NCBI GenBank assembly: GCA_050015515.1
Contig: JBEKBG010000001.1
Coordinates: 6,028 to 70,027, forward strand
Length of the DNA: 64,000 nt
Source of the DNA: Minisyncoccia bacterium
GTDB lineage: Bacteria > Patescibacteriota > Minisyncoccia > UBA6257 > 2-01-FULL-56-20
Direction of reading: 5' to 3'
Positions within the stretch are counted from its first letter, which is position 1; each line of letters starts with the position of its first letter. The notes under the pieces were generated by a model. That model saw only the letters and a program-made list of their open reading frames with translations, was not told the origin of the DNA and made no database searches. Shown here piece after piece: positions 11,796 to 37,154 of the stretch. The position numbers were made by a program, and so were the translations under genes.

Positions 11796-12521
11796 TCAAG
11801 AACGTTCAGATTTCTTCCCTCTCATCCACTTCCTCTGAGGCTCTCTGCCTGCCGCGCGCTCGGCTTTGCGATAGCGATTGCGCGAACGCCTGCTTTCCTT
11901 GACGAGTGCGAGCACCTCATCCGAAAGCATGATATCCCACCGCGCCCAGACCGGCTTTTTATCGGGGAGATGTCCCTCCTTGTTCAGACAACCCCACCAT
12001 GTTTTGCCGTTTATCCTCCTTCGCATTATTTTCATGCGAGCGTTGCATCGCGGGCAACACGGCGGCCTGACAATCCTCAACCAAGTGACCCATATCCGCT
12101 TAAGAAAATTTTCGACGAAATTCTTTGTGCGATGGACGTCGGCGGCAAAATATTCTTCTCTGCCGTCACGCGCACTGACGATGAGCACGCGCCCCGCGTC
12201 TTCATACCGTGGTCTGCCGACAACAATATCACTGGAAAGCAATGGAAGCTGACTGCACCTTTCCACTTTTTCCCGCTCGCACGTGGTCCACACCTTTACC
12301 GCATAGCCATGACGCGGAATACTCACAAACCCAATCTCATAGCTCGGCTCTTCAGAAAAAGAAATTTCTCTGAACCCGCGCCTTCTGAGACGGTGCGCGA
12401 TCTCACAAAAATCCCGATAGGTTACCGAAACCGCTTCTGGCACGATACCACCTCCTCTTTCTGGGAAAGATACTGCGTATGTTATACAAAAATCGCCAAG
12501 GAAAAGCAATGGCTGCGGCAA
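11796..12521 (-). CDS. hypothetical protein with C4 zinc ribbon; possible PD-(D/E)xK/NERD-like nuclease fold
   Basis: CCPRC...C..C ribbon, basic C-terminal tail, D..E.K-like pattern. Family assignment is tentative. Confidence 0.45.
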   Translation of the reverse strand: MPQPLLFLGDFCITYAVSFPERGGGIVPEAVSVTYRDFCEIAHRLRRRGFREISFSEEPSYEIGFVSIPRHGYAVKVWTTCEREKVERCSQLPLLSSDIVVGRPRYEDAGRVLIVSARDGREEYFAADVHRTKNFVENFLKRIWVTWLRIVRPPCCPRCNARMKIMRRRINGKTWWGCLNKEGHLPDKKPVWARWDIMLSDEVLALVKESRRSRNRYRKAERAAGREPQRKWMRGKKSERS

Positions 12522-24592: not shown

Positions 24593-26842
24593 ATGATAGA
24601 TGTCAAGAAGCTGATTACGGGTTTTTTGATCTTGGCTGTCGCTGCGGTCTGTTCTGGGCTGATATTTTCGCTCGCGAACTTTTCATCGCCCGCGACAACC
24701 AATGCCGCCAGCGGAATAGCGATTGGCGCGGGCACCGCAGCCGCAGATAACGCCAACGCGTTCCTGCCCACCGAGGAACAGGTGCAGGAAACCGCCGCCG
24801 CGCTTGCGCCGGAACTCGCATCATCAACAATGCTCGTCAGCTCCACCGACCCGACCAACCTTACCGACGACCTCGCGGCAGAATTTGTGAACGGCGTCGT
24901 TGCCGCGAACCCCAACGGAGCGACCGGCACCGATACCGACGGCAATCCCACCTTCACCTCTCCCGATGTGAACGCGATCGCGGCGAACATCGCCGACAGT
25001 ACCACCACGCAGGCGCTGCAAATTCCTAACTGGGACACCGAGGTCGCGGCAATTCCCGTGACCGTCGTCGCCACCACGAGTGCGACAGCTCTTACCAACT
25101 ACGGCGATGCGGTCAATGGCATTTTAAACAGCCATCTTAACGCGCAAGTGCAAAGCATCGCGAGCGACCAAACCGATGGCGCAACCGCGAGCGAATTAAC
25201 GTATGTGCAGTCGCAGGTGCAAAGCGCGCTTCAAGATACTGCCTCACTAAAAACTCCTGCGCCTGCCGAGGCATATCAGAAAAGTTTATTAGCCAACCTC
25301 GTTTATGAAAAGAACATGATCCAGTTATATACCCTCGCCCAGACCGACCCGGTAAAAGCATCCCTGATCTTCAGTCAAGAAGATACAAAGTTTTCTGCCG
25401 TCCAACAAAATTTTGCGAACCAGGCGCAGGAGCTCACCAGTAATTACCTTTCTCTCGAGCAGGTTCCTCAAAAACCACAAAATGGAATATTACTCTCTTT
25501 TATTAACAATACATTCGGCGTTCCCGAAGCCCACGCACTTTTGCCAGTGTTCGACCCCGCGACGTGGGCCCTGATCATATCGAATGAATGGACAACTATT
25601 CAAACCCAGCTTGAAGGAATCCTTAAAAACATGCTCCTCCAAATCCTCAAGAACGTCCTCATCGCAATTATTCAGCAGAAAGTGCTGGCGTGGGTGCAGG
25701 GGAGCGGGGCGCCGCGATTTATCACCAACTGGGGAACGACGCTCATAAATGTGGCGCAGACAAATGCGCTGAACGCGCTTAATAAAGACATGACGTGCGG
25801 CGCATACTCCGCTTTTGTTCCACAGATCAACATTACCTTAAAAGCTTTTTATTCCCCTAGCGCCAATAATTGCGCAAATCAATTTCAGGCGGCGCTCGGC
25901 GCAAACACCTTCCAACAATTCTATAATAATTTTTCGAATGGGGGATTTGTTGCGTTTGGCGCAAGCACCCTTCCGAGCGGCAACCCTTATGGAGCGCAAT
26001 TTTTTGAAGCTCAGAAAACTGATATCTCTTATCACAATCAGCAGGCAGCCACCGCACTGCAAACACAGACCTCACAAGGATTCAAAGGTGACGCGGTATG
26101 TACCGACGGGAGCAATCCTAACGGAAACAGCACCGTATGCGAAAACCCCAATGGCACATACGATCCGCCCAATATAACCGGGGGAGCATGCCCTGCGGGC
26201 GACAAATCAACCACCGTCTCAAATGGCGGCCTATGCGAGGACGGCACACAACCAATCGTGCAAACGCCTGCGGCGGTCACCGGATTTACCGTTCAAACCA
26301 CGGCAGGTGGCAACGCGACCGTCGCCCAGGTCACCGCAGCGACCGATATCGTCGGCATTCTCAATTCTGTCATGAGTTCCATTGTGATGGGTCTGGCAAA
26401 CGCCGCAGTGAACGCGGCGGGGAAATTGGTGAATCAAACGCTTAGCTCTCCCTCTCTGGATTCCAATATCACCTCCGGTGCCAACCTTTCCGGCATCACT
26501 ACCTCTACTATTGCGAGCACCTCCGCCGCGATCAGCGGCACCCTTGCTTCAATCCCGCTCGCGTGCAATCCGTTGACGCAAACCATCCCGTCCGCATCGG
26601 CCAGCACGCCGACATCAACCGGACTCACGGCTACCAGCACCTCCCCGGTCTCGCTCTCCGCCGCCGGCGGTACGCTTGACGCAAACGACAATCCGCCTAC
26701 TTATAATTGGTCCGACTCCAACGGCGTCACCGGCACTGGCTCGTTCTTCTCCGACACATTCACTATCCCGGGAACGTATACCGTCACCCTCGGCGATTCG
26801 ACGGGCGATGCGCCAACAACATGCACCGTCATTCAACAATAA
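24593..26842 (+). CDS. large secreted/surface protein (749 aa), Ala/Thr/Asn/Gln/Ser-rich; first gene of the T4SS-like operon
   Basis: N-terminal signal/TM, low-complexity repetitive N-half, Cys-containing C-terminal region. Adhesin-like composition. Confidence 0.6.
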   Translation: MIDVKKLITGFLILAVAAVCSGLIFSLANFSSPATTNAASGIAIGAGTAAADNANAFLPTEEQVQETAAALAPELASSTMLVSSTDPTNLTDDLAAEFVNGVVAANPNGATGTDTDGNPTFTSPDVNAIAANIADSTTTQALQIPNWDTEVAAIPVTVVATTSATALTNYGDAVNGILNSHLNAQVQSIASDQTDGATASELTYVQSQVQSALQDTASLKTPAPAEAYQKSLLANLVYEKNMIQLYTLAQTDPVKASLIFSQEDTKFSAVQQNFANQAQELTSNYLSLEQVPQKPQNGILLSFINNTFGVPEAHALLPVFDPATWALIISNEWTTIQTQLEGILKNMLLQILKNVLIAIIQQKVLAWVQGSGAPRFITNWGTTLINVAQTNALNALNKDMTCGAYSAFVPQINITLKAFYSPSANNCANQFQAALGANTFQQFYNNFSNGGFVAFGASTLPSGNPYGAQFFEAQKTDISYHNQQAATALQTQTSQGFKGDAVCTDGSNPNGNSTVCENPNGTYDPPNITGGACPAGDKSTTVSNGGLCEDGTQPIVQTPAAVTGFTVQTTAGGNATVAQVTAATDIVGILNSVMSSIVMGLANAAVNAAGKLVNQTLSSPSLDSNITSGANLSGITTSTIASTSAAISGTLASIPLACNPLTQTIPSASASTPTSTGLTATSTSPVSLSAAGGTLDANDNPPTYNWSDSNGVTGTGSFFSDTFTIPGTYTVTLGDSTGDAPTTCTVIQQ

Positions 26843-26844
26843 CA

Positions 26845-29427
26845 ATGGCGCACAAGAACCACTACAAAAAAATATTCGTCGTCGTCGCGGCGCTGTTCGT
26901 GCTTTTCGCGCCGGTGGGAATAACGACGGTCGGGGGGACGCAAAATTCCACCTCTATTCCAGCGGCCGCGCCAACAACACGAGGAATCCTAATAAAATCA
27001 GCGCCGCCGTCTCCTTATTCTGCATTCCGTTTATCGTTCAATCTTAGCCTTGCGCAGGCGACTCCAACAGCGCCCACTACCGGCGCTGGGGCTGGCCAAA
27101 ATATTCCCGTCAATCCAAATTGGTACAGTTGTACCACGAATCTGGCAACGTGCGGTGTTTATTACGTAGCGCTTACCATAAATGGCGTTATGGGTCTTCT
27201 TGTTTCTCTTGGAGCTACTTTGGTTCGGTTGGGACTTCAACTTAACGATAATGTGTTTAATTCGCCCGCGGTCCAAACGGGATTTTCCGTTGCCCTTGCG
27301 ATCGCGAATCTTGGATTTGTGCTTGGCATTATTATTATCGCCATCGCTACCATTATCAGAAATCAAACCTATGGGATGAAACAGCTTCTTTGGAAGCTGG
27401 TGTTCATGGCCATCCTTGTAAATTTTGGTCTTGTTATCACTGCGCCGATCGTGGGCTTTGCGAGCAGTATGAGTAATTATTTTATCAACGCCACCAGTCC
27501 CTCTTCCGTCAGCATCGCCGGATATGAGGGATATGCCCAAACGATGATGTCCGCCTTCAACCCCCAGGCGCCGGCAGGGGCAGCTTCGGCGGGAACGGGG
27601 ACGCAAAGTTGGACTCCCGCCAGTGGATTTTGTTTAGGTCCTTGGAGCTATTTCAACAGCATCGCGGCCTGGTGCAATAAAAACAATCTACCGACACAGG
27701 ATCCTCCTGGAGTTTTTTGGCAACAGACAATGGCTATGGCTTTCGACATAGTTTTTTCTGCTCTTATCGTCTTTACCTTTTTTTGCCTCGCCATTCTCCT
27801 TCTTATCCGCTACGTTATGCTTGGCGGATTGCTCATCGTCCTTCCTCTTGCGTGGCTTACTTACATATTTCCAAAATTCGATAGTAGCTACAGTAAATGG
27901 TGGAATACTTTTATTAAATGGACATTCTTCCCGCCAATTGCACTTTTTTTCATCTATCTTGCGTTCATTACCGCCACAAATACCAATACTAGTGGAAGTG
28001 CGAGCGCCACCACTGCGGGTCAAACTTATATGACTCAAGCTGTCCAGCTTCCTTCTAACGCACAGACCGGAGTAGAAGCAGCACTGCAAACTCAAACTGG
28101 CACCACCCCGGGCCTTATTCAGTCGATGCTCGACGAAGTCCTTTTGGTAGGTCTCACTGTCATGGGGCTTATGTTCGCTCTTTCGCTTTCCGGAAAGGCG
28201 GGCTCGACGGTGGTAAATGGCGCGACGGCAGTTACTAAGGCGGCGGGAGGATATGTGGGGAAGAAAACCGGCAAAGCTGCAGCGCGAGTTTATCAAAAAG
28301 CAGGAGGGGGAGATCTTAATAAGAATATGCAACAAAGCAGAATTCCTGGCTTCTCGGCGATCGGCAGAGGTATGGCCAACTTGACCGAATCGGCAACCAA
28401 AAATCAGGTTGATGCCCAGCATAAAGCATTGGGGCTTGGCGCCATGGACGATGACCGGCTGCAAGCGGTAACCCAAGGGTTGCACGGGAAGGAAGCCCAG
28501 CTCGCGGCAGTGCAGGAATGGCAGAAGCGTGGAAAAGTGGACAAGATAGAAAGTATCGGCGGCGACAATTTCCAGACATGGCTCAAAAAGAACCAAGGGA
28601 CATTTAAAGATTATGGGCAGGGCAAGCTGCGTGGAGATGTTGATAACGCGATAATGTCGAATGAAGAGATACGGGAGATCGCAAGACAAAAAACCGCCGC
28701 AGCTCCAGCAGCGCGCGCCGCAGCTGAAGTGGTTGATGAAAAAGGGATTGTGGGCCCAGCAGGGGCAACGGTTCGCGCGAGTGATATGGTAAGCCGCGCA
28801 AATGAAGAGGCTAAGAAAGCGCAAGAGATTGTGGATCTTCGGGGAGCTGCTACGTTTATTCCTCATGGGGGAAGCATGGTCAGAGCCGGAGATCTTGTTA
28901 AAGAAGCCCAGGCGGCATCGGAATCTGCGAAGGATGCCATGGATAAAGCGCCAGATGATGCTCTTATTACTGATACGGAAGGCCGCTTAGGAGCAAAAGG
29001 AGAAAAGCAGAAAGCCGGGAAGCTTATGGAAGCCGCTTCTGAAAAATTCTGGGAAGGAAAAGACAAGGGCGATGCCGCAAAGACGCGCCCGAACGTCATA
29101 TTCGGAGATAAGCCAAGCCTCGGCTTTGATAAAGAGCAGCTTAATGAAATCGGGAAGGCGGTAGCCCATGGCGTAGTAGTGCAGGTACCTGGCGTCATGG
29201 GATCGTTAGCGGGCAAGACGGATAACTTGAAACAACTTACCATGCTTACGGAGGCCTACACGAAGAGCGTCCAAGAGGCGGAGAGGTCTAATAAGATATC
29301 AGCAACACAAGCAAAAGCGATGAACTCCGCAATTAAAAAAATGCTCGGGGGGAAACTGGCCTTCATGGGCGGATGGGAGCCAGGATCAGCCCCCACGCCA
29401 GCACCGACACCAACTCCTAAGCCTTAA
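26845..29427 (+). CDS. VirB6/TrbL-like polytopic membrane protein with long K/A/E-rich hydrophilic C-terminal domain
   Basis: ATG 26845 sits 2 nt after the upstream stop. About 6 TM helices across residues 130-420 (pattern typical of TrbL/VirB6), then ~430 aa hydrophilic tail ending in PTPAPTPTPKP. Confidence 0.5.
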   Translation: MAHKNHYKKIFVVVAALFVLFAPVGITTVGGTQNSTSIPAAAPTTRGILIKSAPPSPYSAFRLSFNLSLAQATPTAPTTGAGAGQNIPVNPNWYSCTTNLATCGVYYVALTINGVMGLLVSLGATLVRLGLQLNDNVFNSPAVQTGFSVALAIANLGFVLGIIIIAIATIIRNQTYGMKQLLWKLVFMAILVNFGLVITAPIVGFASSMSNYFINATSPSSVSIAGYEGYAQTMMSAFNPQAPAGAASAGTGTQSWTPASGFCLGPWSYFNSIAAWCNKNNLPTQDPPGVFWQQTMAMAFDIVFSALIVFTFFCLAILLLIRYVMLGGLLIVLPLAWLTYIFPKFDSSYSKWWNTFIKWTFFPPIALFFIYLAFITATNTNTSGSASATTAGQTYMTQAVQLPSNAQTGVEAALQTQTGTTPGLIQSMLDEVLLVGLTVMGLMFALSLSGKAGSTVVNGATAVTKAAGGYVGKKTGKAAARVYQKAGGGDLNKNMQQSRIPGFSAIGRGMANLTESATKNQVDAQHKALGLGAMDDDRLQAVTQGLHGKEAQLAAVQEWQKRGKVDKIESIGGDNFQTWLKKNQGTFKDYGQGKLRGDVDNAIMSNEEIREIARQKTAAAPAARAAAEVVDEKGIVGPAGATVRASDMVSRANEEAKKAQEIVDLRGAATFIPHGGSMVRAGDLVKEAQAASESAKDAMDKAPDDALITDTEGRLGAKGEKQKAGKLMEAASEKFWEGKDKGDAAKTRPNVIFGDKPSLGFDKEQLNEIGKAVAHGVVVQVPGVMGSLAGKTDNLKQLTMLTEAYTKSVQEAERSNKISATQAKAMNSAIKKMLGGKLAFMGGWEPGSAPTPAPTPTPKP

Positions 29428-30426: not shown

Positions 30427-31029
30427 ATGCAATATCAAGTTCCCCAATTCATCGAGACCGAAGACAAGGTTGTCGGACCGTTCTCGCTCCGACAATTCGC
30501 ATACGTGGGCGTCGCGGCGCTCATAAGCGGCGGCGCTTATTTTTTCCTGCAGACGTGGCTATTCCTTATCATCGCACTTGTGTTGGTGGGCGGATCGCTC
30601 GCGCTTTCGTTCGTAAAGATCAACGGCCGGTCGCTTATTAAAGTGGCCACCGCGGCCTTTTATTATTATTGGAAACCTCAGCTGTATGTGTGGAAACCGG
30701 ACCACCCCATGATCGCCCAGCAACCGCATGCGCCCGCGACAGCGAGGAAATTGCTTCCTGTTGCCGATAGTGCTCCCGAAGGCTTCCTCCATAAGATCTG
30801 GGGGAGCTCACAACACGCTCCCGCAGCCGTGAGGGCGTTGCCGCCCATCGCCGCGATCGCTTCCGGAGATTCCCTCCATAAGAGCTGGGGAAACCTGCAG
30901 ACCGGTACGCCGGAGACAAAAGAGATGTCCGACCGCCAGTTTTTGGAGAAAAAAATGATGGAGCGTTACCAGATATTCCGGCGGTTGAGCGGCGACCGTG
31001 CGGCGGCACGGCGCGTGGATTATCGTTAG
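30427..31029 (+). CDS. VirB3/PrgI-like small membrane protein
   Basis: About 100-aa N-terminal module with two TM helices (FAYVGVAALISGGAYFF..LFLIIALVLVGGSLAL) immediately upstream of VirB4, as in Gram-positive prgI-prgJ. Confidence 0.45.
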   Translation: MQYQVPQFIETEDKVVGPFSLRQFAYVGVAALISGGAYFFLQTWLFLIIALVLVGGSLALSFVKINGRSLIKVATAAFYYYWKPQLYVWKPDHPMIAQQPHAPATARKLLPVADSAPEGFLHKIWGSSQHAPAAVRALPPIAAIASGDSLHKSWGNLQTGTPETKEMSDRQFLEKKMMERYQIFRRLSGDRAAARRVDYR

Positions 31030-31032
31030 AAA

Positions 31033-31734
31033 TTGTGCGAAAATAGAATCATGGCAATCCCACAAATGCAGGATGCGGGGAGTTCCCTGGACCTTGTCGA
31101 CATCAAGGAGATCAAACAGAACACGGTCGTCGTAAAGGACGGCAGCTTCCGGCAGGTCATCATGGTAGGGGGTGTCAACTTTTCATTGAAGTCCGAAACG
31201 GAGCAGAATATCATCACGCAAGCGTATCAGACGTTTCTGAACGGTATTGATTTCCCCCTACAGATCCTTATCCACTCCCGCAAGGTGAATATCGATAAGT
31301 ATATCGAGGCGCTGGCTGCCCGGAAGGAGATAGAACAATCTCCCATCCTGCAAAACCAGATCGACGAATACAGCAAGTTCGTGCAGGGATTTGTGGAAAA
31401 GAACGCAATTATGGAAAAGATCTTTTTGGTGGTCGTCTCGTTTTATCCCGTTTCGGTGCTCCCCAACGCAAAAAAAGTTTCTGTGGCGATCCCATTTTTT
31501 GGGAAAAAGAAAATAAGTCCGGCGGAAACAGCCCAGCGCACGGAGGAAGCGGAAAAGATGTTTGGCGAGAACCTTGCGCAGTTAAGCCAACGCACGACCC
31601 AGGTGACGGGGGGGCTTCTGAACATCGGCCTTGAGACGACGGTGCTCAACGATGAACAGCTCATTGAGCTCTTCTATAATTTTTACAATCCACAGACCAT
31701 CGAACATAAAAAAACGCCCGTGGCGCGCGAATGA
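31033..31734 (+). CDS. VirB4-family ATPase, N-terminal domain (ends at an in-frame TGA)
   Basis: Same reading frame as the 31747 ORF. Only TGA 31732-31734 plus 4 codons separate them. Combined length ~815 aa matches VirB4/TrbE. Confidence 0.55.
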   Translation: MCENRIMAIPQMQDAGSSLDLVDIKEIKQNTVVVKDGSFRQVIMVGGVNFSLKSETEQNIITQAYQTFLNGIDFPLQILIHSRKVNIDKYIEALAARKEIEQSPILQNQIDEYSKFVQGFVEKNAIMEKIFLVVVSFYPVSVLPNAKKVSVAIPFFGKKKISPAETAQRTEEAEKMFGENLAQLSQRTTQVTGGLLNIGLETTVLNDEQLIELFYNFYNPQTIEHKKTPVARE

Positions 31735-31746
31735 TATCATTACCCC

Positions 31747-33483
31747 ATGCCAGACCAGCCACAAGAAAATAATTTCAGCGACGTAAAGAAGATCATCGCG
31801 CCGGCGGGCGCGCAGGTGTTCCCCAACTACCTGAAGATCGGCGACAAGCTCGCAAAGACGTTCTTTGTGTTCTCCTATCCGCGCTACCTTTCCACAGGCT
31901 GGTTCGAACCGCTCATCAACCTGCCGAACCTTTTTGACATCTCGATCTTCATCAACCCGATCGACACCGGGAGCGCGCTCAAGAATCTCCGTAAAAAAGC
32001 CGGACAGCTGGAGTCGCAAATGAACGATGAGCAGGACAAGGGCCTCGTGCGAAATCCGGTGCTGGAAACCGCGATCAACGATGTTGAGGGCCTGCGTGAT
32101 TCATTGCAACAGTCCGAGGAAAAGCTTTTCGACACCGGCGTATATATTACGGTCTACGCGGATACCATGGACGAGCTCGCACGGCTGGAAAGCAAGCTCG
32201 TCACGATGATGGAAGCAAAGCTGATCTACCTTAAGCCCGCGCTCTTTGAGCAGCTTGAGGGATTGTCTTCCATCCTGCCGATCAATAACGACAAGCTCCA
32301 GATCTACTCGCCGATGAACACCGGCCCGATCTCATCATTTTTTCCATTTGTCTCCGAAGATCTCTCCTCCAATGAGGGGATCATGTATGGCATCAACCTG
32401 CATAACAGCAACCTGGTGATCTTCGACCGTTTCTCGTTGGAAAACGCAAATGAAGTGGTGTTCGCCAAATCCGGCTCCGGCAAATCGTACACCACCAAGC
32501 TGGAGATCCTGCGCTCGCTCATGGCGGGTATTGACATGGTGATCGTGATCGACCCGGAAAACGAGTATGACCGCCTCGCAAAGACGTTCGGCGGGAGCAT
32601 GTTCAACATCTCTTTGTCTTCGCACGAGCACATCAATCCGTTCGACGTACCGCCGATCCCGGAGGGAGAAACACCGTCGGATGTTCTGCGATCGCATATC
32701 GTGAACATCGCAAGCCTGTTGAAGCTCATGCTCGGCAAGCTCTCGCCGGAGGAAGACGCGCTGCTCGATCGCGCGATCACGGAAACGTACGCCTCCCGCG
32801 AGATCGTCGCCGATACGGATTTTATCGGCAAAGAACCGCCGCTCTTGGGCGACCTGGAAACGGTACTGCGGAATCTGGAAGGCGGGCGCGGCCTTGCGGA
32901 AAAGCTCTATAAATACACCAAGGGAAGTTTTGCGGGCTTCTTGAACCAGCCAACCAATATCGATGTCAATAATCGCCTTATTGTGTTCTCCATCCGCGAC
33001 CTGGAAGAAGAGCTCCGCCCGCTCGGTATGTTCGTTGTGCTCAACTACATCTGGAACCTCATCCGCGCCAAGCTCGCCAAGCGATTATTGTTCATTGATG
33101 AGGCGTGGATCATGATGCAGAACGAAGACAGCGCGACGTTCTTGTTCGGCCTCGTCAAGCGCGCGCGCAAATATTATCTCGGCGTCACGACGATCACGCA
33201 GGATGTGGAAGACTTCTTGCGGTCGCCTTACGGGCGCCCGATCGTCACCAACTCTTCGCTGCAATTGCTGCTCAAGCAGGCGCCCGCCACGATCGATATT
33301 GTCGCCAAAGCGTTCGATCTCACCGAAGCGGAAAAGAACTTCTTGCTCGGCGCGGAGATCGGCACCGGCATCTTCTTCGCCGGCAAGCGCCACGTGGCCA
33401 TCCAGATCGTCCCGTCGTATTACGAAGATCAAATCATCACGACGAATCCCGAGCAAATCCTGGAGGAAAAAAGTGAGCTATAA
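31747..33483 (+). CDS. VirB4/TrbE/PrgJ-family ATPase, C-terminal ATPase domain
   Basis: Walker A AKSGSGKSYTTK, Walker B LLFIDEAW (DEAW is typical of VirB4), GVTTITQD motif. Confidence 0.8.
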   Translation: MPDQPQENNFSDVKKIIAPAGAQVFPNYLKIGDKLAKTFFVFSYPRYLSTGWFEPLINLPNLFDISIFINPIDTGSALKNLRKKAGQLESQMNDEQDKGLVRNPVLETAINDVEGLRDSLQQSEEKLFDTGVYITVYADTMDELARLESKLVTMMEAKLIYLKPALFEQLEGLSSILPINNDKLQIYSPMNTGPISSFFPFVSEDLSSNEGIMYGINLHNSNLVIFDRFSLENANEVVFAKSGSGKSYTTKLEILRSLMAGIDMVIVIDPENEYDRLAKTFGGSMFNISLSSHEHINPFDVPPIPEGETPSDVLRSHIVNIASLLKLMLGKLSPEEDALLDRAITETYASREIVADTDFIGKEPPLLGDLETVLRNLEGGRGLAEKLYKYTKGSFAGFLNQPTNIDVNNRLIVFSIRDLEEELRPLGMFVVLNYIWNLIRAKLAKRLLFIDEAWIMMQNEDSATFLFGLVKRARKYYLGVTTITQDVEDFLRSPYGRPIVTNSSLQLLLKQAPATIDIVAKAFDLTEAEKNFLLGAEIGTGIFFAGKRHVAIQIVPSYYEDQIITTNPEQILEEKSEL

Positions 33484-33494
33484 TTTCTTCACAT

Positions 33495-34298
33495 ATGGAT
33501 GAAGGAGAAAAACCGTTCCCGATAGAATTCATCGTCATCCTTTTGATCGTCGCTGTGGCGAACGACGTCGCGGAAATTTTTTTCGACCTCCTTGACTTCA
33601 CCGGCGTAGGCGTCGCCGGAGAAGCGATCATGGAGCCGGCAAATTTTGTTTTGGACTTTTTCTTTACCGGAATTTTTTGGTGGAAGGTTGGCCCGGGAGG
33701 CGGCACTATAACGCAATACATCGGAGATATTCTCGAACCATTTCTTATTCCGGGGAGAACAATCTCGGTGGGGCTCGGTATGTGGATAGCGAACCATCCC
33801 AATTCCGCGATAGGGGAAGCGGCGAATACTGCGGTCTCGCTTGAAAGCGGCAACGTCGCGGGTGCGACAGGTGAAGTTGAGGGAATCGCGGGAACTGCGG
33901 AAAAAGAAGCGGCTGATGCCGAGAAGAAACTTCAAGGCGGGAGTGCGAGTGGTACCGGCGAAGGCGGTGAAGGCGGATTAGAAGCTGCTAAAGAAGGCCA
34001 AACTGCCGAATCGAAATCTCCTGAAGCCCAAAGCGGCGGAGAAAAAGAAAACGCCCCCGAAGAAGACGTATTTAAAAATCCCTACGAAAATCCCGTGGGA
34101 ACTGCCGGAGAAGAGCTTAACGAACCACCCGAGGAAGAATTCCACGAAGGGGAAGGATTTAAGCCAAAAGAAGAACCGCAGGAAAACGAGATCCAATCAC
34201 AGAAAGTCGTTGATATTGCGAGCCGCCGGCCGCCATCGCCAAAAAATGAGAACCGCGCAGGTGATGCCGACGCCGAAGACCTCGCAGAAGCGGCATAG
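33495..34298 (+). CDS. membrane protein with highly acidic Gly/Glu-rich C-terminal tail
   Basis: Two to three N-terminal TM helices. C-terminal ~150 aa E/G/A/K-rich and disordered. Confidence 0.5.
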   Translation: MDEGEKPFPIEFIVILLIVAVANDVAEIFFDLLDFTGVGVAGEAIMEPANFVLDFFFTGIFWWKVGPGGGTITQYIGDILEPFLIPGRTISVGLGMWIANHPNSAIGEAANTAVSLESGNVAGATGEVEGIAGTAEKEAADAEKKLQGGSASGTGEGGEGGLEAAKEGQTAESKSPEAQSGGEKENAPEEDVFKNPYENPVGTAGEELNEPPEEEFHEGEGFKPKEEPQENEIQSQKVVDIASRRPPSPKNENRAGDADAEDLAEAA

Positions 34299-34333: not shown

Positions 34334-35083
34334 TTGTTATACTTAAGGAAAGATATGTTCTCGCGAATTGTGCTTAAAAAGATGGCGCTTGTGGGTTTTA
34401 TCGCGATTGCCCTCGTAGCCGGTGGCACCTTTCTTTTAGTAACATCAATAGCTCACGCACAGACGGCATCATCGCCCACATTTCTTATCACGTGGAAAAC
34501 GACGGGGAGCTATATCCCATCGTTTTATATCGGTAAGGCCTTGTCAACCTATGGGTCGAAGATTACCGCGTCGCTCGAGTTGGTCTCGCCGCAGGGAAAG
34601 ATCCTTGATCTCAGCGGGCAGACGATCTATTGGTACGTGAATGACACCTTAGTGGGCGGTGGAGTGGGTGTTCAACAAGTAACATTCCCGCCTGTCGGTG
34701 ACGCACCGAATACCGCCAACCTACGCGTGACGCTCCCGAACTATAATGGCGCATATCTTATTCACGCGATCAATATCCCTATGGTTCTACCGGAGGCGGT
34801 GATCTACGCGCCATACCCTAATGGGCAGTTTACACAGAATCCGCTGACGGTGCAGGCTATCCCGTATTTCTTTAACATCGCCGATCCTTCCGGCCTTTCC
34901 TACGCGTGGTCGGTAGATGACCAAGCCGGCTCCAACGCCGAAAATCCGGAGACGGCGCAGGTCACGTTGCCGCAGGGCACGCAGTCGGGAACCGGCGTGA
35001 ACGCATCGCTCAGCGTTGAGAATCCCAACGACTCCACCGTCGCCACCGCGAGCGCCAACTTAACCTACGAAAGCCAGCTATGA
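34334..35083 (+). CDS. bitopic secreted protein (topology compatible with VirB8-like, not established)
   Basis: Short cytoplasmic tail, one TM, beta-rich ~200-aa extracytoplasmic domain. Confidence 0.45.
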   Translation: MLYLRKDMFSRIVLKKMALVGFIAIALVAGGTFLLVTSIAHAQTASSPTFLITWKTTGSYIPSFYIGKALSTYGSKITASLELVSPQGKILDLSGQTIYWYVNDTLVGGGVGVQQVTFPPVGDAPNTANLRVTLPNYNGAYLIHAINIPMVLPEAVIYAPYPNGQFTQNPLTVQAIPYFFNIADPSGLSYAWSVDDQAGSNAENPETAQVTLPQGTQSGTGVNASLSVENPNDSTVATASANLTYESQL

Positions 35084-35805
35084 AGAAATTTTTTTATAGC
35101 TTAGCTGCGATTGTCTCAAATTTCTTCCTTTTGTCCGCCGCGCATGCGGTGACGATTAGTATGGCCATCCCGGGCGGCCCAAACGCTTATCCCACCAGCA
35201 CCGGTCCTGGCGGTTTTGTCGCCAACTTCTACCAGTTTGCACTGATGATCGGCGGGGTTCTTGCTTTCGGGGTTATTGTGTATGGAGGAGTGCGATATAT
35301 GGCATCCGCAGGCAATCCTTCGGGGCAAAGCGATGCGAAAGAATGGATAGAGGCGGCTCTGTTGGGATTATTACTACTTGTGGGCGCATATTTTATCCTT
35401 AATGTGGTGAATCCACAGCTGACGAATCTTGTGCCGCCAACGCTCACGCCGGTAAATATCCAAACGCCGGCCGCCGCCACAACACAAACGGAGATACAAA
35501 CCGCTATCGCTGCTTGTGTCGCTGCTTGTCAAGATGCAAGCTGTACCGCTGCATGTAATGCCCAGGGATCATCTTTGCAATCGGCGTTCAGCGGAGCATG
35601 TAGCGCGAACACTTGTCCATCAGGCCAGACGTGTCAAAATGACGGAAGTGGAGGGCATATGTGCCTTAATATCAACCCCTTATCAACAAACCCTCTGGGC
35701 TCTACACCTGCAGGAGATTACTCAAGCTGTGCGCAAGCCAACTGCGCATCGGGCAAAAACTGCGTAGTAGATCTCAGTAATAGCAAATACTACACCTGCA
35801 TGTAA
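35080..35805 (+). CDS. VirB2/TrbC-like pilin with Cys-rich C-terminal extension
   Basis: Signal peptide (AHA|V), two long hydrophobic helices separated by a short polar loop (…VRYMASAGNPSGQSDAKEW…), then a T/Q-rich linker and 12 Cys in the last ~95 aa. Confidence 0.45.
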   Translation: MKKFFYSLAAIVSNFFLLSAAHAVTISMAIPGGPNAYPTSTGPGGFVANFYQFALMIGGVLAFGVIVYGGVRYMASAGNPSGQSDAKEWIEAALLGLLLLVGAYFILNVVNPQLTNLVPPTLTPVNIQTPAAATTQTEIQTAIAACVAACQDASCTAACNAQGSSLQSAFSGACSANTCPSGQTCQNDGSGGHMCLNINPLSTNPLGSTPAGDYSSCAQANCASGKNCVVDLSNSKYYTCM

Positions 35806-35828
35806 TACCCAGCGAAAAATCTATATCT

Positions 35829-37154
35829 ATGAAACGCTATCTCTATATTATAATCGGCATCATCGTCGCGGCGGCCATCGTAATATTGGTTCTTTTCCTG
35901 ATAAAAAATAATGCGGCGAGCACGACGATCACCACCTCGGGGACGACCGGCGGTTCGCTTCCGGCGGCGGGTACGCAAGGGAGTGGTGGATCGGGAGTAA
36001 CGAGCAGCGTTGCCACACTCGGCCTCTCGCCGATAGCAAGTGGCACCAGTGCGAACACAAACAACCAAACGGTTGTGCAAAACTTTGGCGTGCTTTCACA
36101 AAGCCCCGCTTTGGATTATTTCGTTGACGCTCAAAATAATATCACCGCCATCCAACCGACGGGCGCCATTATCACAATAAAAAACGGCCAGACGACGACA
36201 GTAAATTCCTCGACGATTGACGGCATCATCTCCGCAAGCTTTTCCTATGATGGCAAAAAGATCGTTGTGAATTATGGCGATCCGTCCGATCCGCGGGCGG
36301 GCGTTTATGATGTTGCGACGAACGCGTGGACGGCACTGCCGCAGGGAATTCTCTCGCCCCAATGGTCTCCGGCCAATAATTACCAGATCGCATACCTTGC
36401 GGTACCGAGCGCCGGAAAGCTTACGCTCGCTACCGTTAACGCCGCGAATTTAAAAACTACGCCGACGACCCTCCTTACGCTTAACGCGAACGATCTCGCG
36501 CTCCAATGGCCCACGGCGAGCGAATTTATCCTTTCCGATAAGCCGACTTCGCAGAACGCAGGGTCGGTGTGGGTTTATAATTCGTCGGCTGGAACACTGG
36601 AGCCCCTCATATATGAGGTTCCTGGCGCGGAGGGAATATGGAGTCATAATGCCGCCATTCCTTATGGCCTGACCTTCTTTAATAATCCGTCCGGCCAAGG
36701 GGGGAATACATTACAGCTACAGGTTTTTTCTGGAAATTTGCCGACTCAGCCGCTCGTTTTCTCAACCTTGCCTTCCAAGTGCGCTTTTAACACCGAACTC
36801 ATGCCGGTTGCGACATCTACCGCTGGCGCGGCGACGTCCACGACGGCTTCGTCCACCGCAAAGATATCGGCGAAAGTCGCCGCAACTTCCACGCCGTACC
36901 TCGCGCTCTATTGCGGCATTCCACGCAGCTCGAGCGGGTTCTCCTCCGCACACCTGCCGGACGCCTATAATACGATGGCGCTCTTTACCTCCGACGATAT
37001 TTATAAAATAAACACCGCGACGGGCGCGGAACAGGTGCTTTGGAGCGATGCCACACAGAACATGGACGTCTCTGATGTAAAGTTCTTCAATGATGCGTTG
37101 TTCTTTGTAAACCGCTATGATCAAAAACTGTACGGTCTTACTTTTAGTAATTAA
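35829..37154 (+). CDS. secreted Thr/Ser/Gly/Ala-rich protein (beta-propeller-like?), last gene of the operon
   Basis: N-terminal TM/signal and a long beta-rich domain. No motif. Confidence 0.5.
   Translation: MKRYLYIIIGIIVAAAIVILVLFLIKNNAASTTITTSGTTGGSLPAAGTQGSGGSGVTSSVATLGLSPIASGTSANTNNQTVVQNFGVLSQSPALDYFVDAQNNITAIQPTGAIITIKNGQTTTVNSSTIDGIISASFSYDGKKIVVNYGDPSDPRAGVYDVATNAWTALPQGILSPQWSPANNYQIAYLAVPSAGKLTLATVNAANLKTTPTTLLTLNANDLALQWPTASEFILSDKPTSQNAGSVWVYNSSAGTLEPLIYEVPGAEGIWSHNAAIPYGLTFFNNPSGQGGNTLQLQVFSGNLPTQPLVFSTLPSKCAFNTELMPVATSTAGAATSTTASSTAKISAKVAATSTPYLALYCGIPRSSSGFSSAHLPDAYNTMALFTSDDIYKINTATGAEQVLWSDATQNMDVSDVKFFNDALFFVNRYDQKLYGLTFSN

Follow-up and report, generated by a model that had tools for sequence, protein, structure and literature searches.

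The T4SS gene cluster studied here encodes a 241-residue protein that begins like a small pilin and ends in a module with 12 cysteines, raising the question of whether it is a pilin-family subunit and what its tail might do. The gene lies at 35080..35805 on the forward strand of the window, the 64-kb stretch of DNA that was analysed, and starts with ATG. The upstream ORF (34334..35083, +) stops with a TGA at 35081-35083, giving the 4-bp overlap (ATGA) with the pilin start that the initial annotation had described. The same overlap recurs in the related loci L003, L004, L006, L032, and L033, and suggests that translation of the two genes may be coupled.

The initial annotation had also described a signal peptide, a two-helix hydrophobic hairpin with a polar loop, and a Thr/Gln-rich linker, and hydropathy, AlphaFold2 modeling, and the sequence itself all agree with this layout. 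Residues 1-23 (MKKFFYSLAAIVSNFFLLSAAHA; 35080..35148, +) have the hydropathy of a signal peptide ending in AHA. Signal peptidase I is predicted to cleave after this triplet, and the junction between AHA and VTIS is kept across homologues. The pilin core (residues 24-115; 35149..35424, +) comprises the mature N-terminus, TM helix 1, a loop, and TM helix 2. Hydrophobic segments lie at approximately residues 46-72 and 88-112, and AlphaFold2 places helices at 43-75 and 80-110 (pLDDT ~81-85), on either side of the polar loop GNPSGQSDAKEW. Within positions 24-145, Lys or Arg occurs only at R72 and K87, in the loop between the helices (RYMASAGNPSGQSDAKEW), which is consistent with a cytoplasmic loop and with both termini outside. 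TM helix 2 is followed by a motif (NPQLTNLVPPTLT; 35410..35448, +) with the family consensus NPQLxNLxLPTLT, and then by a linker rich in Thr, Pro, Gln, and Ala (residues 116-145; 35425..35514, +), with pLDDT below 50 at residues 133-152. The 12-Cys module, predicted to be extracytoplasmic, occupies the remaining 96 residues (146-241; 35515..35802, +). Residues 1-145 contain no Cys.

The surrounding genes form a T4SS cluster next to dnaA. A large polytopic membrane protein (26845..29427, +) with at least seven hydrophobic segments is a VirB6 candidate by position only, with no match in Pfam, NCBIfam, or PDB; translation likely starts from the ATG at 26845 rather than from the TTG at 26707. A PrgI family (VirB3-like) protein (30427..31029, +) matches Pfam PrgI with E = 7.8e-09 and 36.4 bits against a cut-off of 27. 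The VirB4 N-terminal domain is encoded by a separate TrsD/TraC-like gene (31033..31734, +; NCBIfam VirB4_plasma, 2.4e-11, and TrsD, 8.9e-07; Pfam TraC_F_IV, 1.7e-4), and the C-terminal P-loop part of the VirB4-type ATPase by another (31747..33483, +; Pfam P-loop_TraG, 7.5e-24, AAA_10, and DUF87). The gene directly upstream of the pilin encodes a 249-residue protein with an N-terminal hydrophobic segment and no known family, found in the same position at 15 or more related loci. The downstream gene (35829..37154, +) encodes 441 residues with an N-terminal TM helix, a Ser/Thr-rich linker, and a globular part. PDB sequence searches with these pilin-flanking genes returned nothing useful, and no VirB5 homologue was seen. 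The gene order (PrgI, TrsD-like, VirB4, two genes, pilin, 441-aa gene, jag, yidC, dnaA, dnaN) is identical in L003, L004, L006, and L033. The arrangement near dnaA is already known, with PF18895 pilins near virB4 and dnaA being the published layout of Patescibacteria T4SS (PMC12102498); the tail is the undescribed part.

We then asked whether the core is a VirB2/TrbC-like pilin, as had been proposed. Residues 46-110 match Pfam T4SS_pilin (PF18895) with 33.4 bits against a cut-off of 26.6 (E = 4.8e-08), over profile positions 8-71 of 71, and the same family is matched by all 120 closest relatives of the protein. The context agrees with this assignment, with T4SS core genes (VirB4, PrgI) upstream and a Minisyncoccia MAG as the source. 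The leader, the two TM helices, and the short charged loop reproduce the VirB2-like topology, although "small" fits the core only. PF04956 (VirB2/TrbC) gave no match at E<=1 for the pilin and none at E<=1e-3 for the 120 relatives, and a profile search of PDB sequences found nothing at E<=10. Comparison by hhalign of the core alignment with 120 PF04956 sequences, both alignments being of low diversity, returned a probability of 1.5% over 32 columns; given that low diversity, this null result may be compatible with very distant homology. The best Foldseek matches of the hairpin were generic TM hairpins (E>=2), a two-helix hairpin being too simple to discriminate folds. The pilin assignment therefore stands on the T4SS_pilin family, the topology, and the cluster, whereas sequence or profile similarity to PF04956 or to solved pilins was not found, and the label "VirB2-like" rests on topology, gene context, and family name.

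Many classical VirB2/TrbC pilins are cyclised head to tail. Classical members (PF04956; Agrobacterium T-pilin, RP4 TrbC) share with the window protein the leader, two TM helices, a short charged loop, both termini outside, and a gene within a T4SS cluster, but are 102-128 aa long with 0-4 Cys and no extra domain, whereas the window protein adds a 126-residue C-terminal linker and module. The earlier statement that classical pilins lack a Cys-rich domain was confirmed in 120 sampled PF04956 proteins (median 126 aa, 0-4 Cys). Also comparable are the PF18895 pilins from Patescibacteria T4SS (Quinonero-Coronel et al. 2025, PMC12102498; Wang et al. 2023, PMC10633639), which share HMM membership and topology and likewise lie near virB4, prgI, and dnaA, with an array of pilin paralogues elsewhere in the genome. 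The MAG studied here has such an array of short T4SS_pilin paralogues (118-139 aa) at another locus; a second pilin gene within the 64-kb window was sought by tblastn and HMM over all six-frame ORFs, and none was present. The published PF18895 pilins are treated as small, whereas the window protein is about twice the usual size through its lineage-specific 12-Cys module, and C-terminal modules, Cys-rich tails, or pilin-enzyme fusions are not mentioned in PMC12102498, PMC10633639, or PMC12857230. PrgF(B2) of pCF10, a VirB2-like protein recently proposed for Gram-positive T4SS, is likewise a small two-TM hairpin, from a monoderm MPF-FATA-type system, for which a pilus on a VirB6 pentamer was proposed from modeling and mutagenesis; unlike the window protein, it has no reported extra domains (bioRxiv 10.64898/2025.12.18.695078).

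The cysteines of the module lie at positions 146, 150, 155, 159, 174, 179, 185, 195, 217, 222, 228, and 240, with the spacing C-x3-C-x4-C-x3-C-x14-C-x4-C-x5-C-x9-C-x21-C-x4-C-x5-C-x11-C. Against a Cys content of 0.7% across 53 window ORFs, the probability of 12 or more in 96 residues is ~5e-12. A module of about 95 residues with 12 Cys in CxxxC/CxxC-like spacing had been described, and the count, the length, and the Cx3C pairs hold, whereas there is no true CxxC. CxxC pairs do occur in two other Cys-rich window ORFs, 857-1420 and 11796-12521, which look basic and cytoplasmic and are unrelated.

The module is directly predicted to consist of a twin-Cx3C unit and two copies of a four-Cys unit. 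Sub-unit A (C146-x3-C150-x4-C155-x3-C159; 35515..35556, +) is modeled as a helix-turn-helix, with helices at residues 2-15 and 19-34 of the 107-aa module-alone AlphaFold2 model, at low confidence. Sub-unit B (C174-x4-C179-x5-C185-x9-C195; CSANTCPSGQTC...C; 35599..35664, +) is modeled as a beta-hairpin with strands at 183-187 and 193-197 (pLDDT ~74-79), and a regular expression for its Cys spacing finds it in 26 of the 120 family members. Sub-unit C (C217-x4-C222-x5-C228-x11-C240; CAQANCASGKNC...C; 35728..35799, +) has the same framework as sub-unit B, with modeled strands at 228-231 and 237-240 (pLDDT ~71-84), and is missing in the orthologues P0004 and P0005, which stop after sub-unit B.

No known family or fold was recovered for this module. 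Modeled alone from a clean five-sequence alignment, it reached a mean pLDDT of 58.6, and Foldseek with this low-confidence model gave no significant fold, the best match being the MSP1-19 EGF pair (E = 0.49); the EGF-pair and granulin likenesses were accordingly dropped. Searches for EGF-like, granulin, follistatin, knottin, and Pfam Cys-rich families gave no significant sequence or fold match. Pfam reported only AWS for the module (E = 0.007-0.022, under its cut-off), and Pfam and NCBIfam together found nothing above cut-off for the module and eight other tail types of relatives. An exhaustive phmmer search of 1.84 billion protein representatives, together with Pfam and PDB, yielded no accepted relative. 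Two phmmer matches were rejected as spurious, both being long tandem-repeat proteins that summed weak stretches, one of them without Cys in the matched repeats.

Whether the Cys spacing is conserved in homologues had been raised as a decisive point. All 12 Cys columns are kept in the orthologues P0002 (80% identical) and P0003 (70%), while P0004 and P0005 keep the first 8, indicating a conserved framework and not low-complexity sequence. Identity at non-Cys positions of the module is 46-81% among orthologues, and linker identity is 59-67%. The even number of Cys, with a framework that is kept while other residues vary, is the pattern of a disulfide-rich domain, and the 12 Cys would most likely form six disulfides. 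The module has a dN/dS of 0.18-0.30, below 1 yet 3-8 times the core value, and the averaged ratio does not point to positive selection. In the comparison of the window with L032, dS is lower in the module than in the core, which hints at transfer.

The initial annotation had suggested that a disulfide-knotted tip domain displayed on a pilus would be a new kind of pilin-adhesin fusion. The Cys-tail fusion is no isolated case, as 105 of 120 members of this Patescibacteria pilin subfamily have a Cys-bearing C-terminal extension, and the 110 extensions compared form about 40 sequence clusters. Across the species representatives, the tail is absent, contains 2, 6, 8, 12, or 32 Cys, or is a coiled-coil. 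Three loci have a VirB4 with 93-98% identity and a core with ~85% identity, yet their tails differ: that of L003 is 53% identical to the tail of the window protein, L004 has none, and L006 carries an unrelated 12-Cys module in its place. Furthermore, each genome has a second copy of the core (~85% identical) fused to SLT_3, CHAP/NlpC-like, or other enzyme-like domains.

Two other sources of such variation were considered and rejected. A polymorphic toxin/immunity pair is at odds with the downstream gene (440-445 aa), which is 67-81% identical in L003, L004, and L006 whether the tail is of type A, of type B, or absent. A diversity-generating retroelement was discarded, as the region 35425-35805 has no second copy (template repeat) in the 64-kb window; no reverse transcriptase was found among the window ORFs scanned.

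On balance, we lean towards reading the gene as a PF18895 pilin-family subunit of an origin-adjacent chromosomal T4SS, with the tail as a surface specificity or contact module that probably binds a host. Cleavage of the Sec signal peptide would leave a mature protein consisting of a helical hairpin in the membrane, whose short charged loop faces the cytoplasm while both ends lie outside; the linker and the 12-Cys module would therefore also be extracytoplasmic. By analogy with VirB2 and PrgF, the VirB4/VirB6-type machinery may recruit the hairpin into a short pilus or conduit and display the module on its outer surface; in all solved conjugative pili, the pilin termini point outward (bioRxiv 10.64898/2025.12.18.695078). 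A nearly frozen core, combined with a tail that is swapped, truncated, or lost among loci with almost identical VirB4, points to a surface-exposed specificity or contact module. This evolutionary pattern makes the surface of the host cell, which these bacteria need, the most likely target. In the second copy, the core carries other cargo, namely peptidoglycan-hydrolase-like domains. The genes for the T4SS and its pilins have proved essential in a cultivated relative (PMC10633639; PMC12857230). Several points count against this reading. The same two studies report no T4SS filament of Patescibacteria. The short paralogues could form the filament shaft, leaving this protein another role; tails of ~230-250 aa, as in the orthologues L027 and L028, could hardly be accommodated on each subunit of a filament; and the module, with its low-confidence model and no known fold or family match, offers no readable binding function.

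The same observations bear on a second reading, in which the hairpin would remain in the cytoplasmic membrane next to the T4SS as a conserved anchor or docking element. From there, the ~30-residue linker would place the module in or just beyond the cell's own wall, as a wall or S-layer binder or a spacer, and any filament would be built by the short pilins of the second locus. Fusion of the same core to SLT_3 and CHAP/NlpC-like domains recalls the membrane-anchored VirB1-type hydrolases found in T4SS of monoderms, and the short paralogues in the same MAG, the generic hairpins returned by the fold search, and the length of the longest orthologue tails (~250 aa) all fit such an anchor. The core, however, is constrained beyond the needs of a simple anchor: it is 84-91% identical among relatives, has a dN/dS of 0.03-0.07, and retains as invariant elements the cytoplasmic loop (GNPS...W) and the motif following TM helix 2. 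Additionally, tail-less orthologues occupy the same T4SS position in L004, L009, and L014, indicating that the core has a function of its own, and the swapping of tails between close relatives has no obvious reason if the module faces only its own wall. We consider the anchor a possible reading, though a doubtful one.

The motif after TM helix 2 also raises the possibility of a pro-pilin, in which NPQLxNLxLP would be a processing site and the Cys module would be cut off and then either lost or secreted as a small disulfide-rich factor, for example an effector or signal. C-terminal processing is established for P-type pilins (RP4 TrbC/TraF), and the trimming of RP4 TrbC provides a precedent. 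Throughout the 120 family members, and irrespective of what comes after it, the motif is strongly conserved: N111, P112, and L117 never vary, and Q113, L114, L119, and P120 are conserved to at least 90%. The cargo beyond it is extremely diverse. However, the T4SS cluster showed no TraF-like or otherwise dedicated protease, and the motif, with ~10-20 further residues, is retained in members that have no extension, suggesting that it may belong to the mature core. Purifying selection on the module fits either fate and decides neither. Overall, removal of the module appears unlikely.

The state of the cysteines is a further point of doubt, as they might bind metal (Zn or Fe-S) or remain reduced in mostly anaerobic organisms that perhaps have no oxidising compartment. 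The Patescibacteria typically live by anaerobic fermentation (PMC12102498), and no thiol-oxidase, Dsb-like, or VKOR-like gene turned up among the window ORFs scanned. The module is nevertheless predicted to be extracytoplasmic, and its Cx3C, Cx4C, and Cx5C spacings with a single His are unlike the CxxC pairs of zinc ribbons. In the extensions of the 120 members, the Cys number is even and non-zero in 96, odd in 9, and zero in 15, as paired cysteines would give, with the core nearly Cys-free; the complete pilin copies at the T4SS locus have an even number or none in 17 of 17. Metal-binding or reduced cysteines are thus very improbable. Finally, an artefact (a mis-called ORF, a two-gene frameshift fusion, or a functionless low-complexity tail), for which unusual composition is the sole argument, is refuted by the identical protein on two contigs and its listing in four collections (NCBI, JGI, Logan, ENA), by orthologues of the same architecture and gene order on other contigs, by the invariant Cys framework, and by a dN/dS well below 1 in both core and module.

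The preferred reading, a pilin-family subunit with a displayed contact module, has parallels in other systems. Modular type IV pilins, such as PilB and PilC of Streptococcus sanguinis, and the disulfide-bonded D-region of type IVa pilins embody the same concept of a conserved polymerising moiety with a grafted, variable, and often disulfide-stabilised adhesive C-terminal part. Type IV pili are nevertheless unrelated, with a single N-terminal helix, a prepilin peptidase, a PilB/PilT motor, and no homology to the hairpin core. The VirB5/CagL tip adhesins and the Bartonella Trw pilin arrays fill the role proposed here, a lineage-diversified and host-specific contact made by a T4SS surface structure, but VirB5/CagL is a separate protein and Trw variation arises by duplication of whole pilin genes, whereas the variable part described here forms one polypeptide with the pilin. 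The second core copy resembles the VirB1-type hydrolases (PrgK, TraG of pIP501, CwlT) in combining a membrane anchor with lytic transglycosylase or CHAP-like domains in association with a T4SS. Their anchor is a plain TM segment and not a pilin-family hairpin, and the window protein itself carries a Cys-rich module and no enzyme.

A large part of bacterial diversity belongs to the Patescibacteria, which seem to live attached to other microbes; in the one tractable species, this way of life requires the T4SS and its pilins. As a tentative and rather uncertain generalisation, the Paceibacteria/Minisyncoccia may use one conserved T4SS pilin core as a display scaffold, with the operon copy carrying swappable disulfide-rich host-recognition modules and the second copy peptidoglycan hydrolases. 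If so, the operon-copy modules would set host range and the hydrolases of the second copy would breach a cell wall. The fused cargo would stand in for VirB5 and VirB1, both of which seem to be missing from these systems, and the pilin-hydrolase fusions may account for the seeming lack of VirB1 in most of them. Should the tail turn out to be cleaved off or to have only a structural role, the finding would shrink to an annotation detail of a known family. If the protein is built into a pilus, these would be the first "modular T4SS pilins", joining an adhesin or enzyme and a filament subunit in one polypeptide, and the modular-pilin idea, known from type IV pili, would then hold for T4SS pilins too. 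Being small, probably disulfide-rich, and very diverse, the modules lend themselves to expression and binding screens. A surface-exposed, pilin-fused module exchanged between near-identical genomes would be a testable candidate determinant of host specificity.

The pilin gene (35080-35805, + strand) encodes 241 aa from an ATG start, which shares bases with the TGA stop of ORF 34334-35083 just upstream, confirming the 4-base overlap reported in the initial annotation. The protein begins with a signal peptide (aa 1-23, ending in AHA) and a mature N-terminus of 22 residues, followed by two hydrophobic segments that show in the hydropathy profile and are modelled as helices at aa 43-75 and 80-110 with pLDDT 81-85. 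The helices are joined by the loop RYMASAGNPSGQSDAKEW, and a conserved motif, NPQLTNLVPPTLT, follows TM helix 2. A linker of Thr/Pro/Gln/Ala composition then extends up to aa 145 and leads into a 96-residue module with 12 Cys (positions 146, 150, 155, 159, 174, 179, 185, 195, 217, 222, 228, and 240). Within aa 24-145, Lys and Arg are confined to the inter-helix loop; by the positive-inside rule, this loop is cytoplasmic, and the two termini, with the Cys module, lie outside. Sec export and a hairpin that leaves the tail outside the cytoplasm are directly predicted for this pilin.

The hairpin matches T4SS_pilin (PF18895) with 33.4 bits, against a Pfam cut-off of 26.6, and we filed the protein under this family rather than under PF04956. 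An identical protein is on record as a 'hypothetical protein' of a Minisyncoccia MAG, Minisyncoccia being a class in the phylum Minisyncoccota, that is, Patescibacteria/CPR. The initial annotation had described a VirB2-like pilin. The core fits the operational definition of such a pilin (a leader that is cleaved off, a pair of TM helices with a short charged loop, both termini outside, gene in a T4SS cluster), but the homology searches gave no link to VirB2. PF04956 was absent from the query and 120 relatives in a profile search, and the family profile matched nothing among PDB sequences at E≤10. Foldseek with the hairpin returned generic TM hairpins alone, and hhalign of the core alignment against 120 PF04956 sequences gave a probability of 1.5%. 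With low diversity in both alignments and so simple a fold, these searches do not count against homology.

Upstream of the pilin, the type IV secretion locus encodes a large membrane protein of polytopic type, whose position alone makes it a VirB6 candidate, and a PrgI/VirB3-like protein. For the VirB6 candidate, ATG 26845 (MAHKNHYKK...), which directly abuts the stop of the 749-aa gene at 24593-26842, is the likelier start; a 906-aa ORF from TTG 26707 runs over the end of that gene. The TrsD/TraC-like N-terminal part of VirB4 (31033-31734, 233 aa) is a gene of its own, adjoined by the P-loop ATPase part (31747-33483, 578 aa), and the same two-gene split occurs in the related loci L003, L004, L006, and L033. 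Two function-unassigned genes stand between the VirB4 ATPase and the pilin, and a 441-aa membrane-anchored protein is encoded downstream of it, followed by jag and yidC on the opposite strand and then dnaA and dnaN. This gene order agrees with the published Patescibacteria T4SS layout (PMC12102498), an MPF-FATA-like system whose PF18895 'VirB2-like' pilins are encoded close to virB4 and the origin of replication. Southlakia epibionticum cannot grow epibiotically without its T4SS and pilin genes (PMC10633639; reviewed in PMC12857230). The identity of the pilin and its gene cluster, including the PF18895 family, the T4SS operon, and the location of that operon by the origin, is therefore already known. 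A few kb past dnaN lie a T2SSE/MshEN-type ATPase (47366-49075), probably the motor of a type IV pilus or of type II secretion, and a Lamin Tail Domain protein that looks secreted (52201-52947); two surface-appendage systems are therefore grouped around the origin.

The Cys module proved to be real and constrained, with all 12 Cys kept in the orthologues P0002 (80% identical) and P0003 (70%). Cys is rare in this genome (0.7% across 53 window ORFs), and the binomial probability of twelve within 96 residues is ~5e-12. The module consists of three units: one twin Cx3C unit and two copies of a four-Cys framework, C-x4-C-x-S-G-x-x-C-x9/11-C. Its non-Cys residues are 81% identical in P0002 and 46% in P0003, compared with 87-88% for the core. 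Two further orthologues, P0004 and P0005, break off past Cys 8, without the final four-Cys unit, which points to whole units being gained or lost. Nei-Gojobori dN/dS was 0.03-0.07 in the core; in the module it was 0.18-0.30, or 0.32-0.46 once the Cys codons were removed, all rough values with dS partly saturated. The module is therefore under purifying selection, yet its constraint is 3-8 times weaker than that on the core. The twelve Cys would form six disulfides. Between the window and the related locus L032 (1716-2438), dS is 0.48 for the module (35515-35802) versus 1.40 for the core, with fewer than 100 codons per region; this lower module dS hints weakly that the module may have moved by recombination, perhaps recently. 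The gene also carries a 20-nt direct repeat of 85% identity (35544-35563, TACCGCTGCATGTAATGCCC; 35791-35810, TACACCTGCATGTAATACCC), whose copies lie in differing reading frames, the second covering the stop codon, and which probably arose by chance.

An exhaustive phmmer search with the module against 1.84 billion representatives returned two matches only, both spurious repeat proteins, and neither Pfam nor NCBIfam gave a match above cut-off. AF2 modelled the module alone as a helix-turn-helix followed by two beta-hairpins at low confidence (pLDDT 58.6); with this low-confidence model, the top Foldseek matches were EGF-like pairs and granulin, none of them significant. Two other predicted window ORFs are Cys-rich, 857-1420 (+, 5.9% Cys) and 11796-12521 (-, 3.3%). 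With their CxxC pairs and basic sequence, they look like cytoplasmic zinc-ribbon proteins with no kinship to the pilin module.

With the window as reference, we compared tails across its close relatives L003, L004, and L006. VirB4 identities are 97.1%, 92.9%, and 97.8%, respectively; the pilin core is 84-85% identical and the downstream 441-aa gene 67-81%. The tail is 53% identical in L003, absent in L004, and replaced by an unrelated 12-Cys module in L006. The tail is thus swapped among very close relatives and hypervariable on a frozen core. A DGR origin of this variation was rejected, as the window contains no DGR-type template repeat, and a toxin-immunity arrangement is argued against by the downstream gene, which does not vary with the tail. 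The 267-aa gene directly after virB4 (33495-34298), whose product has hydrophobic segments at the N-terminus and ends in an acidic tail rich in Gly, Glu, and Pro, is a second fast-evolving part of the cluster: it is 66% identical to L003 over the full protein, and only its C-terminal 78-87 residues align with L004 and L006 (36-41% identity), while VirB4 of these loci is 93-98% identical.

Among the 120 closest family members of the window pilin, a Cys-rich tail is the rule, not the exception. The signal peptide and core are Cys-free in 107 of the 120, and the extension has an even, non-zero Cys count in 96, an odd count in 9, and no Cys in 15; the odd counts all fall in an enzyme-like class with 'GDIVIQAQDGHVGIC'. 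Median length is 221.5 aa, versus 126 aa for 120 PF04956 VirB2 proteins. Clustering of 110 extensions yielded ~40 unrelated tail types, the window's type comprising five members.

Contig look-ups were combined with a scan of GTDB species representatives, which gave 25 loci from ~14 genomes; most genomes have two copies of the pilin core. The T4SS-operon copy is preceded by VirB4 and a 249-aa gene and followed by the 441-aa gene. At this position, the tail is absent (L004, L009, L014), Gly/Ser (L010), a ~250-aa coiled-coil tail (L027), or a small module rich in Cys (2, 6, 6, 8, 8, 12, or 32 of them), and the 12-Cys tails are of at least three unrelated types. The Cys count is even or zero in 17/17 complete copies. 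Two orthologues at this position have extreme tails: a Liptonbacteria pilin (L027:5926-7035) has a ~250-aa charged, coiled-coil-like tail ending in CAQNSLRSC, and the L028 pilin (gene matched from 6001) has a 232-aa tail with 32 Cys in repeated Cys-rich units and a weak DUF7107 match below cut-off.

The other copy, ~85% identical in the core, is the second gene in a pilin array that follows a solute-binding-protein (SBP_bac_1) gene (L001:3474-4367, P0060; L005:8001-8834, P0113; also L008, L011, L013, L015-L019, L022, L025, L026, and L031). Its extensions, 148-263 aa long, are SLT_3 lysozyme-like, CHAP/NlpC-like, or otherwise enzyme-like domains, or a domain with 12 Cys and His/Asp motifs. Such an array is present in the window's own MAG (P0060); locus L001 carries a protein annotated from that MAG. 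VirB1-type wall-lytic function is reported to be mostly missing from Patescibacteria T4SS (PMC12102498), and these putative pilin-hydrolase fusions may supply it. The arrays also contain short T4SS_pilin paralogues of 118-139 aa (L001:4934-6257, L005:9423-10758), each with exactly two Cys, the first just ahead of TM helix 1 (e.g. LFCTIFAW, FLCSVVDW) and the second 2-8 residues or fewer from the C-terminus (NLTSC, NVDCLG, LQAC). A disulfide between these N- and C-terminal Cys could serve the short paralogues as head-to-tail cyclisation serves VirB2/TrbC pilins.

The Cys-tailed pilin is a solid observation; its function is inferred. The VirB4/VirB6 machinery would recruit the core and incorporate it into a pilus or conduit, with the tail on its outer surface, since pilin termini face outward in all solved conjugative pili (bioRxiv 10.64898/2025.12.18.695078). 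There, the tail would contact the host surface. In rough geometry, F-type pili have five subunits per ~12-13 Å rise and an outer diameter of ~87 Å, so that at radii of 43-70 Å each subunit has ~700-1100 Å2 to itself. All subunits could therefore bear a 10-kDa module tethered by a 30-residue linker. Tails of 230-250 aa, as in some orthologues, would better suit a minor subunit or one at the tip. The main rival reading takes the hairpin for a membrane anchor associated with the T4SS, and is favored by the core paralogues bearing enzyme domains and by the short pilins in the array. A third option is that the protein is cut at the conserved motif that follows TM helix 2.

The literature searched yielded no description of a distinct T4SS pilin subfamily that serves as a carrier, bearing hypervariable modules rich in Cys at the T4SS locus and domains of hydrolase-like type in the array; unsearched literature may hold one. 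The window protein is one example of this subfamily, with a lineage-specific 12-Cys module, and the observation opens a testable route into how CPR bacteria recognise their hosts.
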